NCBI RefSeq assembly: GCF_045037415.1
Contig: NZ_CP173438.1
Source: Escherichia coli
GTDB lineage: Bacteria; Pseudomonadota; Gammaproteobacteria; Enterobacterales; Enterobacteriaceae
Reading direction: 5' to 3' (one strand)
Length of the DNA: 64,000 nt
The position numbers were made by a program, and so were the translations under genes. Shown in pieces: positions 10,220 through 11,199 of this stretch. Each line of letters begins with the position of its first letter. Position 1 is the stretch's first letter. The notes below the pieces were generated by a model, which saw nothing but the letters and a program-made list of their open reading frames with translations, was not told the DNA's origin and made no database searches.

Positions 10220-10227
10220 GCCAGAAG

Positions 10228-10247
10228 GGCGGGGTGACCCGCCTTTT
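10228..10247 (+). terminator. Possible intrinsic terminator between aldolase paralogue 2 and the ROK kinase gene
   Basis: GGCGGG / CCCGCC 6-bp GC stem with 4-nt loop followed by TTTT, 9 nt after the aldolase stop codon. Confidence 0.35.
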
Positions 10248-10266
10248 ACGCAACAAGGAACGAGAT

Positions 10267-11199
10267 ATGCACTATCTGGGGTTGGATATTGGTGGGACCA
10301 AAATCGCCGCCGTTGTCATGGATGCGCATGGCTGGGAGATTCGCCGTTACCGCTGCCCGACGCAAAAGTCGACATATCAACAATTTGTCTCATGCGTTGT
10401 GGCGCTTATCGAGCAGATTAGGCGGGACGTTCAACGACCGATGCTGACAGGGATCGCCTTACCCGGCAGTATCTCGCCACTCACTGGCCTGATTAAAAAC
10501 GCGAATATTCAGGTGATTAACGGTCATGCGTTACAGGCTGATTTGCAGCAATTGCTTGGGCAACCGGTGGTGATAGCCAATGATGGTAACTGTTTCGCGC
10601 TATCAGAAGCTTGCGACGGTGCCGGGCAAGATTATGACGTGGTATTTGGTATTACGCTTGGTACGGGCTGCGGCGGTGGCATTGCCATCAAGCAACGACC
10701 GTTTATAGGGGCCTGGGGAAATGCTGCCGAATGCGGTCATATCACGTTGCCAGGCTATACGGAGCAGGAAGATGGTCCATCAGTCAGTTGCTATTGCGGC
10801 AAACACAACTGCGTGGAGTCGTTTGTTTCCGGCAGCGGTTTTAGTGAACGCTATCAACAGATGACTGGTAACTTGCTCACTCCTGCGGCGATTGTCACCC
10901 TGGCACAACGTGGTGATGCTTGTGCCATGCAGCAGGTGGCACGTTTTCGCCAACAGCTTGCCCGCACGCTGGCAACCATCGTTAACGTTGTTGACCCTGG
11001 CGTGATTGTGATCGGCGGCGGGCTTTCGAATGTGGAACTGCTTATCACCGATCTGAACGCAGAAGTCGCTCCACTGGTTTTCACCGATCAATTCACCACT
11101 CCCATTGTAAAAGCACAGCACGGCGACAGTAGCGGAATGCGTGGCGCTGCCTGGCTTGCTATGCGCAACGGAGAAGCCAATGAAACGTTCACAAATTAA
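10267..11199 (+). CDS. ROK-family sugar kinase (NagK/Mak-like)
   Basis: ORF-track protein from the internal Met MHYLGLDIGGTKIA (ATP-binding N-terminus, RBS AAGGAA upstream of ATG at 10267); ROK zinc motif CYCGKHNCVESFVSGSG; the longer ORF start at 10234 lies inside the upstream hairpin. Confidence 0.7.
   Translation: MHYLGLDIGGTKIAAVVMDAHGWEIRRYRCPTQKSTYQQFVSCVVALIEQIRRDVQRPMLTGIALPGSISPLTGLIKNANIQVINGHALQADLQQLLGQPVVIANDGNCFALSEACDGAGQDYDVVFGITLGTGCGGGIAIKQRPFIGAWGNAAECGHITLPGYTEQEDGPSVSCYCGKHNCVESFVSGSGFSERYQQMTGNLLTPAAIVTLAQRGDACAMQQVARFRQQLARTLATIVNVVDPGVIVIGGGLSNVELLITDLNAEVAPLVFTDQFTTPIVKAQHGDSSGMRGAAWLAMRNGEANETFTN

Follow-up and report, generated by a model that had tools for sequence, protein, structure and literature searches.

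The yicI–yicH insertion of the E. coli DNA analyzed here raises the question of whether its last two genes, which encode a ROK-family sugar kinase and a cupin-fold sugar isomerase, are transcribed as a unit of their own. An earlier note on the same window (the whole analyzed stretch of 64,000 nucleotides) had claimed a GC hairpin with a T-tract at 10228..10247 ahead of the kinase gene and a 20-nt overlap of the kinase and isomerase genes, and from these had proposed that the island may be split into two transcription units, with either attenuated read-through or a separately regulated, translationally coupled kinase-isomerase module. To answer this question, the identity of the locus, the hairpin and the gene overlap were investigated in E. 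coli and in orthologous operons.

By gene content and position, the insertion (4917-11860, + strand) was identified as the frz operon of extraintestinal pathogenic E. coli. Pfam analysis placed a GH31 alpha-xylosidase gene (yicI) upstream and the convergent AsmA-family gene yicH downstream of it, and as a yicI/yicH insertion it is absent from K-12-type strains. The genes in between encode the frz set, i.e. an Mga/PRD activator, fructose-type EIIA, EIIB and EIIC, two class II aldolases, the ROK kinase and a cupin protein. In megablast searches the whole island was present in 1601 of 5426 complete E. coli genomes, and in island-less genomes the matches comprised only the ends of yicI and yicH, which are adjacent to each other. 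All starts and stops, including the 20-nt overlap, are identical in the PGAP annotation of an E. coli genome that is 100% identical over 4600-12000. Among solved structures, N-acetylglucosamine kinases and glucokinases are nearest to the kinase.

The frz operon of ExPEC strain BEN2908 was reportedly described by Rouquet et al. in 2009 in J Bacteriol 191:4427. In the BEN2908 genome paper frz is listed as a 7227-bp region (PMC12928451), and no difference between it and the island analyzed here was found, as both occupy the same yicI–yicH site, hold the same eight genes and have the same size of about 7.2 kb. According to a review that summarizes the original work, frz is 'transcribed in one operon' and affects stationary-phase and low-oxygen survival as well as type 1 fimbriae (PMC8777976); co-transcription of frz is taken here from this summary. 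In the open papers on frz that were consulted, neither the internal hairpin nor the 20-nt overlap is mentioned, nor is further detail on the transcript given. The locus is an already known operon, and its conserved internal hairpin is a fresh example of familiar operon punctuation. The features of the locus are collected in the table.

Table. Features of the frz operon in the analyzed window, with the basis of each assignment.
Feature	Position	Strand	Basis and remarks
PTS regulator, first frz gene	4917..6470	+	Pfam: HTH_11, Mga HTH, two PRD, PTS_IIB-like
PTS EIIA, fructose/mannitol type	6497..6967	+	Pfam PTS_EIIA_2; PGAP
PTS EIIB	6985..7299	+	Pfam PTS_IIB; PGAP
PTS EIIC	7324..8415	+	Pfam PTS_EIIC; PGAP
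Class II ketose-bisphosphate aldolase 1	8427..9278	+	Pfam F_bP_aldolase; PGAP
80-nt spacer between the aldolase genes	9279..9358	+	strongly sequence-conserved between genera
Class II ketose-bisphosphate aldolase 2	9359..10219	+	Pfam; PGAP; stop TAA 10217-10219
Intercistronic RNA stem-loop	10224..10247	+	core GGCGGG 10228-10233 / CCCGCC 10238-10243, GUGA loop 10234-10237, U4 10244-10247
Kinase-gene Shine-Dalgarno AAGGA	10255..10259	+	7 nt before ATG 10267
ROK-family sugar kinase, 310 aa	10267..11199	+	Pfam ROK residues 3-299; PGAP; stop TAA 11197-11199
Isomerase Shine-Dalgarno GGAG, inside the kinase ORF	11170..11173	+	6 nt before ATG 11180-11182
20-nt overlap of kinase 3' end and isomerase 5' end	11180..11199	+	sequence; PGAP
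Cupin-fold D-lyxose/D-mannose-type sugar isomerase, 226 aa, last frz gene	11180..11860	+	Pfam Lyx_isomer 1-222 of 222; PDB 3kmh E = 5e-64
Terminator-like hairpin at operon end, 9-bp stem then CCTTATTTTT	11870..11895	+	between isomerase gene and convergent yicH

Both the sequence and its predicted fold bear out the GC hairpin and T-tract that had been claimed for the 47 nt separating aldolase 2 from the ROK kinase gene. The six G-C pairs of the core alone account for -12.6 kcal/mol, and the TTTT at 10244-10247 is directly followed by ACGC. In RNAfold the stem was lengthened to 10 bp (10224-10233 with 10238-10247) by pairing of the four U's with GAAG at 10224-10227; the stem starts 4-8 nt past the aldolase 2 stop codon, with the core at 8 nt. 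A 71-nt context of the hairpin folded with -24.4 kcal/mol (z = -3.49), and none of 200 shuffled sequences folded as well. Within the 64-kb window, GGCGGG-N4-CCCGCC occurs once, against 0.21 occurrences expected, and it was still single copy when one mismatch was allowed. Neither 4500-12100, scanned at an E-value of up to 1, nor four orthologous loci had a match in Rfam. Membership in the REP/BIME repeat family was rejected on account of this single copy and the missing Rfam match. The kinase start is ATG 10267; a GTG at 10234, which heads a mechanically defined ORF, falls within the hairpin loop.

If the hairpin marked the boundary between two independent transcription units, it would have to terminate the regulator-PTS-aldolase transcript efficiently, and a separately regulated promoter would be needed for the kinase and isomerase genes. 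A GC hairpin followed by four U's just past a stop codon is what such a boundary could look like, and the hairpin belongs to the same class as other gene-end hairpins in the window. However, a promoter scan did not find any sigma-70-like site on the + strand from 5626 to 11490. Only 19 nt lie between the U4 tail and the kinase ATG and these include the ribosome-binding site of the kinase gene, so that no promoter fits downstream of the hairpin, and any promoter within aldolase 2 would have to transcribe through it. As the above-mentioned review summary likewise gives frz as one operon (PMC8777976), a division of the island into two transcription units was not borne out and is considered highly improbable.

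To characterize the hairpin further, orthologous operons were collected from the genomes of Escherichia sp., two Citrobacter, Buttiauxella, Phytobacter, Raoultella terrigena, R. planticola and Klebsiella aerogenes and from 29 metagenome contigs. Kinase homologues with an identity of up to 65% (K. indica, K. oxytoca, Pantoea, Erwinia, Affinibrenneria, Enterobacter sp.) were excluded because they belong to a different gene cluster; a Chimaeribacter homologue, the context of which was checked, and alphaproteobacterial matches of 38-45% were likewise left out of the comparison. In all collected orthologues the same stem lies within a spacer of 47-52 nt behind aldolase 2. Of the 12 core positions, 11 were invariant among 13 distinct sequences, and at the twelfth a C to U change in Buttiauxella keeps the pairing as G·U. 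In the adjacent aldolase gene, identity between genera at four-fold sites is 40-46%, and of 126 such sites only 10 do not vary across all eight genome sequences; given this background, the binomial probability of the core invariance is about 9e-12.

Outside the core, three to four stem pairs covary (A-U, G-C, C-G, U-A): four outer pairs were changed on both sides, with double changes in 12 cells. The observed covariation score was reached by none of 500 shuffles, and register-shifted controls scored much lower. The loop varies as well, and seven of its nine distinct forms are extra-stable tetraloops (GUGA, GCAA, GCGA, GGAA, UUCG, UACG and CUUG), the remaining two being UUUG and AGUA. As the classes counted (GNRA, UNCG and CUUG) make up 13 of 256 possible tetraloops, the nominal probability of this bias is 3e-8, a figure that exaggerates the case since the variants are related by descent. 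A bias to tetraloops that are stable as RNA suggests that selection acts on an RNA hairpin rather than a DNA site; a palindrome bound by a protein at the DNA level was judged unlikely for this reason and because the flanking pairs covary. As judged from these comparisons, the stem-loop is maintained by selection.

The sequence behind the stem does not share this conservation. T-rich tails follow the stem in Escherichia, Citrobacter, Phytobacter and R. terrigena (TTTTAC, TCTTTC, TTTTTC), with the interrupted forms TCTTTC and TTTTTC in Citrobacter, Phytobacter, R. terrigena and operons that lack the kinase gene. In Buttiauxella, R. planticola and K. aerogenes, i.e. in three of the seven lineages that keep the hairpin, the U-tract is missing, and the stems of these U-less lineages are longer and fully Watson-Crick paired, with about -20 kcal/mol. 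The distance from the hairpin to the next ATG is constant at 22-24 nt, and a GGA-containing purine-rich site precedes the kinase ATG in every orthologue.

Natural variants without the kinase gene were found on 14 metagenome contigs with Citrobacter-like frz operons. Here, the stretch behind aldolase 2 carries the same hairpin and an AAGGAA box and leads directly to the isomerase ATG, with a spacer of 52 nt and the same constant distance from hairpin to start codon. Three of these contigs (L029, L049 and L051) match the kinase-bearing Citrobacter sp. FP75 exactly in the spacer from aldolase 1 to aldolase 2, which indicates a recent, clean deletion of the kinase gene. As the kinase-less variants show, some lineages can do without the kinase. 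Since the hairpin is kept ahead of the isomerase gene when the kinase gene is gone, it is an element of the aldolase 3' end and not of kinase-specific control. Together with the loss of the U-tract in three lineages, this leaves the proposal of a separately regulated kinase-isomerase module without support. Both findings also weigh against two independent units; in the kinase-less variants the isomerase gene stays behind the same hairpin with no sequence added.

The variable gene content of the distal part, together with the decay of the U-tract in several lineages, could also be expected if the hairpin were a functionless relic, e.g. a decayed terminator from an ancestral fusion of two gene clusters. 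Such a relic would hardly have retained an invariant core, covarying outer pairs and a bias to stable tetraloops while synonymous sites were randomized, and we regard it as very improbable.

The capacity of the hairpin to terminate transcription was assessed by its stem and tail. The terminator scan applied here, for which at least five T's among the eight bases after the stem are required, did not list the E. coli hairpin, where four of these eight bases are T. By a rule with a stricter stem and a shorter tail (perfect stem of 6 bp or more, including five or more GC pairs, then four or more T's in 5 nt), six hits at four distinct sites were obtained in the window, with the E. coli hairpin among them, against 0.85 hits expected; the other three sites lie 10, 129 and 10 nt past the ends of + strand ORFs. 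The hairpin is, as an intrinsic terminator would be, a GC-rich stem-loop outside the coding region. The U-rich tract of intrinsic terminators typically comprises 7-9 nt, with the U's adjoining the stem. In the orthologous loci no such tract was conserved along with the hairpin, and its absence in three lineages means that canonical intrinsic termination cannot be the conserved function. A d'Aubenton-Carafa-type score gave the E. coli hairpin a positive value and the U-less orthologues negative ones, but it also came out negative for the terminator-like hairpins listed in the window and, being poorly calibrated on these, was given no weight. Taken together, partial termination in the E. coli lineage is plausible from the sequence, and the hairpin is at most a leaky stop signal.

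Leaky terminators are known inside E. coli operons: rpsU-dnaG-rpoD contains an internal terminator and rplKAJL-rpoBC an attenuator. Like these, the frz hairpin is a GC-rich stem-loop with U's between cistrons and has no promoter behind it, an arrangement that would reduce distal gene dosage. It differs from them in that its tail consists of only U4 and is not conserved among genera that keep the stem.

Antitermination of the BglG/SacY type, with a RAT element overlapping a terminator, was considered as well, as PGAP names the product of the first frz gene 'BglG family transcription antiterminator'. The likeness to BglG/SacY systems is limited to this product name and to the PRD domains. The regulator carries HTH_11 and Mga domains and no CAT_RBD match was listed for it, and by this predicted domain content it is of the DNA-binding activator type without the RNA-binding CAT domain. 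Moreover, the 4-8 nt between the stop codon and the stem leave no room for a RAT element. RAT-terminator antitermination was rejected on these grounds.

The hairpin could also act without any termination, as a pure mRNA stability or processing element that blocks 3' exonucleases or marks a processing site, with the consequence that the upstream segment would be longer-lived than the kinase-isomerase segment. Known intercistronic stabilizers are the REP sequences between malE and malF and the hairpins of the Rhodobacter puf operon. These are likewise very stable hairpins directly 3' of a cistron in a polycistronic mRNA, conserved in structure; in frz, a stable stem-loop with compensatory changes lies between cistrons of what the review gives as one operon. 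The frz hairpin differs from REP in its sequence and in being single copy in the window, and a stabilizing role is a candidate function here. Several findings are in line with it: the conserved part is the hairpin and not the U-tract, the U-less lineages have the longer, fully paired stems, and the preference for extra-stable tetraloops fits selection for thermodynamic stability. T-rich tails in the other four groups of lineages and the match of the E. coli hairpin to the class found at gene ends speak against stabilization as the only function, a reading that we regard as possible but less likely than not. The pure-stability reading is compatible with partial termination.

A further explanation is recognition of a specific sequence, in which a protein or an RNA would bind the invariant helix, or the helix would shape the region where translation of the next gene begins. 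This would account for a core that stays invariant in sequence while four-fold sites are near saturation, beyond what a generic stability hairpin needs, and for the constant distance to the downstream ATG that holds in the kinase-less variant too. On the other hand, any intermediate mismatch is costly in a 6-bp stem, which may alone explain the invariance. The lack of an Rfam match, the uniqueness of the element in the window and an operon regulator with a DNA-binding HTH in place of an RNA-binding CAT domain also disfavor recognition, and to our knowledge there is no candidate factor that binds a GGCGGG/CCCGCC helix. Recognition of a specific sequence is considered quite unlikely.

Unlikely, too, is a more specialized role as a dedicated, sequence-specific regulatory RNA in place of a generic terminator, i.e. 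a translation-sensitive attenuator or a factor-binding site that would tie the dosage of kinase and isomerase to aldolase translation. Such a role is suggested by the invariance of the core across genera and by the location of the stem 4-8 nt past the aldolase 2 stop codon, where a terminating ribosome would cover its 5' arm. The 80 nt that separate aldolase 1 from aldolase 2, which are equally conserved, might form another component of such a system. About half of its alignment columns are invariant; within this spacer no compensatory pairs were detected, the fold was not exceptional (z = -1.3) and Rfam gave no match.

The second claim of the earlier note concerned the 3' end of the kinase gene. 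The sequence and the PGAP gene boundaries agree with a 20-nt overlap in which the isomerase ATG at 11180 and its ribosome-binding site lie within the kinase ORF. This start is further supported by protein alignments, since position 1 of the Lyx_isomer profile corresponds to residue 1 and the alignment to 3kmh begins at query residue 1. An overlap was present in all kinase-containing orthologues, with 20 nt in Escherichia, Citrobacter and Buttiauxella and 4 nt (ATGA) in Phytobacter, both Raoultella species and K. aerogenes, and in all eight lineages a GGAG is located 6-11 nt upstream of the isomerase ATG. A one-nucleotide difference in phase within the final 23-29 nt of the kinase gene separates the two forms. 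Where the overlap is 20 nt, the kinase reading frame continues beyond the ATGA into the first isomerase codons, which it reads out of frame, giving rise to the tail NETFTN.

Translationally coupled genes with overlapping stop and start are known from trpE-trpD and trpB-trpA. The frz pair, a candidate for such coupling, likewise combines a same-strand overlap of stop and start with a downstream Shine-Dalgarno sequence inside the upstream ORF, and this is conserved in orthologues; it differs from the trp pairs in that the E. coli frz overlap measures 20 nt and not the usual 1 or 4 nt. The conserved overlap of 20 nt or 4 nt fits translational coupling. An RNA fold around the isomerase start did not reveal significant structure (z = +0.54), and unmasking of a buried ribosome-binding site is therefore not indicated; coupling, if present, would act via proximity or re-initiation. 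The overlap itself is an ordinary, conserved arrangement.

The reading which we prefer, with a probability of roughly 50%, is a single operon with an internal stem-loop that serves as a leaky terminator and/or a 3'-exonuclease barrier and lowers the output of the distal genes, with read-through favored by the ribosome and with the isomerase coupled to the kinase. Transcription of frz would start from a promoter upstream of 4917 and proceed to the terminator at 11870-11895. If the hairpin is a leaky intrinsic terminator, it would stop a fraction of the polymerases at about 10247-10250; if it blocks 3'-to-5' exonucleases, the regulator-PTS-aldolase segment upstream of it would be protected. We favor a leaky terminator in E. 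coli and, more generally, a 3' exonuclease barrier. Either effect would set the kinase and isomerase genes below the proximal genes without a promoter of their own. Because the stem begins only 4-8 nt past the stop codon, a ribosome terminating at the end of aldolase 2 should cover its 5' arm and thereby favor read-through, as we infer from the size of the ribosome footprint. Further downstream, the location of the isomerase start and its GGAG inside the end of the kinase ORF means that translation of the isomerase is probably coupled to that of the kinase.

The main value of this analysis is that the reading of two transcription units is corrected and the island is identified as a known operon; in other respects its architecture is ordinary. 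The conserved internal hairpin suggests separate doses for the transporter and aldolase genes on the one hand and for the kinase and isomerase genes on the other. Such a difference in dose, if true, would matter for the reconstruction of frz phenotypes and for the reading of polar effects of operon mutations.

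The ROK kinase gene is absent from the frz operons of a number of metagenome contigs, which are listed together with the other compared features in the table below. In these contigs the hairpin comes next after aldolase 2, and an AAGGAA box then leads directly to the ATG of the isomerase, giving a spacer of 52 nt; the hairpin is the same one as in kinase-containing frz operons. L029, L049 and L051 share an identical aldolase 1-aldolase 2 spacer with Citrobacter sp. FP75 (L003), which harbors the kinase, and because of this identity the loss of the kinase looks like a recent clean deletion.

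Location of the features compared (L-numbers denote loci from other genomes and metagenome contigs)
Feature	Location	Remark
Spacer between the two aldolase genes	window 9279-9358	80 nt
Kinase/isomerase overlap	within window 11175-11199	
Kinase/isomerase overlap	L015-L018, around 3895-3918	
frz operons without ROK kinase gene	L027, L028, L029, L035, L037-L040, L042, L046, L048-L051	metagenome contigs
Spacer-region allele of E. coli ET201 (NZ_CP100994.1)	L054:1201-1341	141 nt
Perfect GC hairpin followed by T-run	window 16620-16639	10 nt past + strand ORF end
Perfect GC hairpin followed by T-run	window 27028-27045	129 nt past + strand ORF end
Perfect GC hairpin followed by T-run	window 51317-51334	10 nt past + strand ORF end

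Within E. coli, 1573 of the 1605 genomes carrying the region around the hairpin showed at least 99% identity across it. The most divergent allele among the matches listed was that of strain ET201 (95.7% identity), in which the stem is unchanged and the loop GTGA is replaced by GCAA, also a GNRA tetraloop. In a mechanical ORF list of the window the kinase ORF begins inside the hairpin loop, at GTG 10234-10236. This start was rejected; the real one is ATG 10267, in agreement with the PGAP annotation, the Pfam profile and all orthologues.

At its other end the kinase gene overlaps the isomerase gene by 20 nt in Escherichia, Citrobacter and Buttiauxella and by 4 nt (ATGA) in Phytobacter, Raoultella and K. 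aerogenes, the two forms being out of phase with each other by 1 nt close to the 3' end of the kinase gene. Kinases of the 20-nt group comprise 310-312 aa and those of the 4-nt group 305 aa; the extra residues are N-terminal codons of the isomerase read out of frame. Outside frz, the nearest kinase homologues (~63-65% identity) are those of K. indica, K. oxytoca, Affinibrenneria, Pantoea, Erwinia and Enterobacter sp. (L019-L024). They belong to another, distinct conserved cluster, in which the ROK kinase is accompanied by a Mga/PRD/EIIA regulator and a Porin_8 porin and, in some cases, by a type I phosphomannose isomerase.

When six genera were compared, about half of the columns of the aldolase 1-aldolase 2 spacer were invariant, versus 8% of four-fold sites, and by this sequence measure the spacer is conserved far above neutral sites. 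Its invariant blocks include TGCC...GGCAGGG, CTACA and GAAACTGGAGA, and it contains the imperfect palindrome TGCCAGTGC-AATAAC-GCACCGGCA. No compensatory pairs were found in the cross-genus comparison, the fold was not significant (z = -1.3), the promoter scan detected no promoter-like site and Rfam gave no match.

Elsewhere in the window, each of the three perfect GC hairpins downstream of + strand ORFs probably represents a genuine intrinsic terminator; the palindromic hairpin at 51317 was detected on the - strand as well.

The first gene of frz (4917-6470) carries the PGAP product name 'BglG family transcription antiterminator'. Its product harbors HTH_11, Mga HTH, two PRD and IIB-like domains and no CAT domain, a predicted domain set that is of the DNA-binding, PTS-controlled activator type. 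The PGAP name could therefore mislead, as readers might wrongly expect RNA antitermination.
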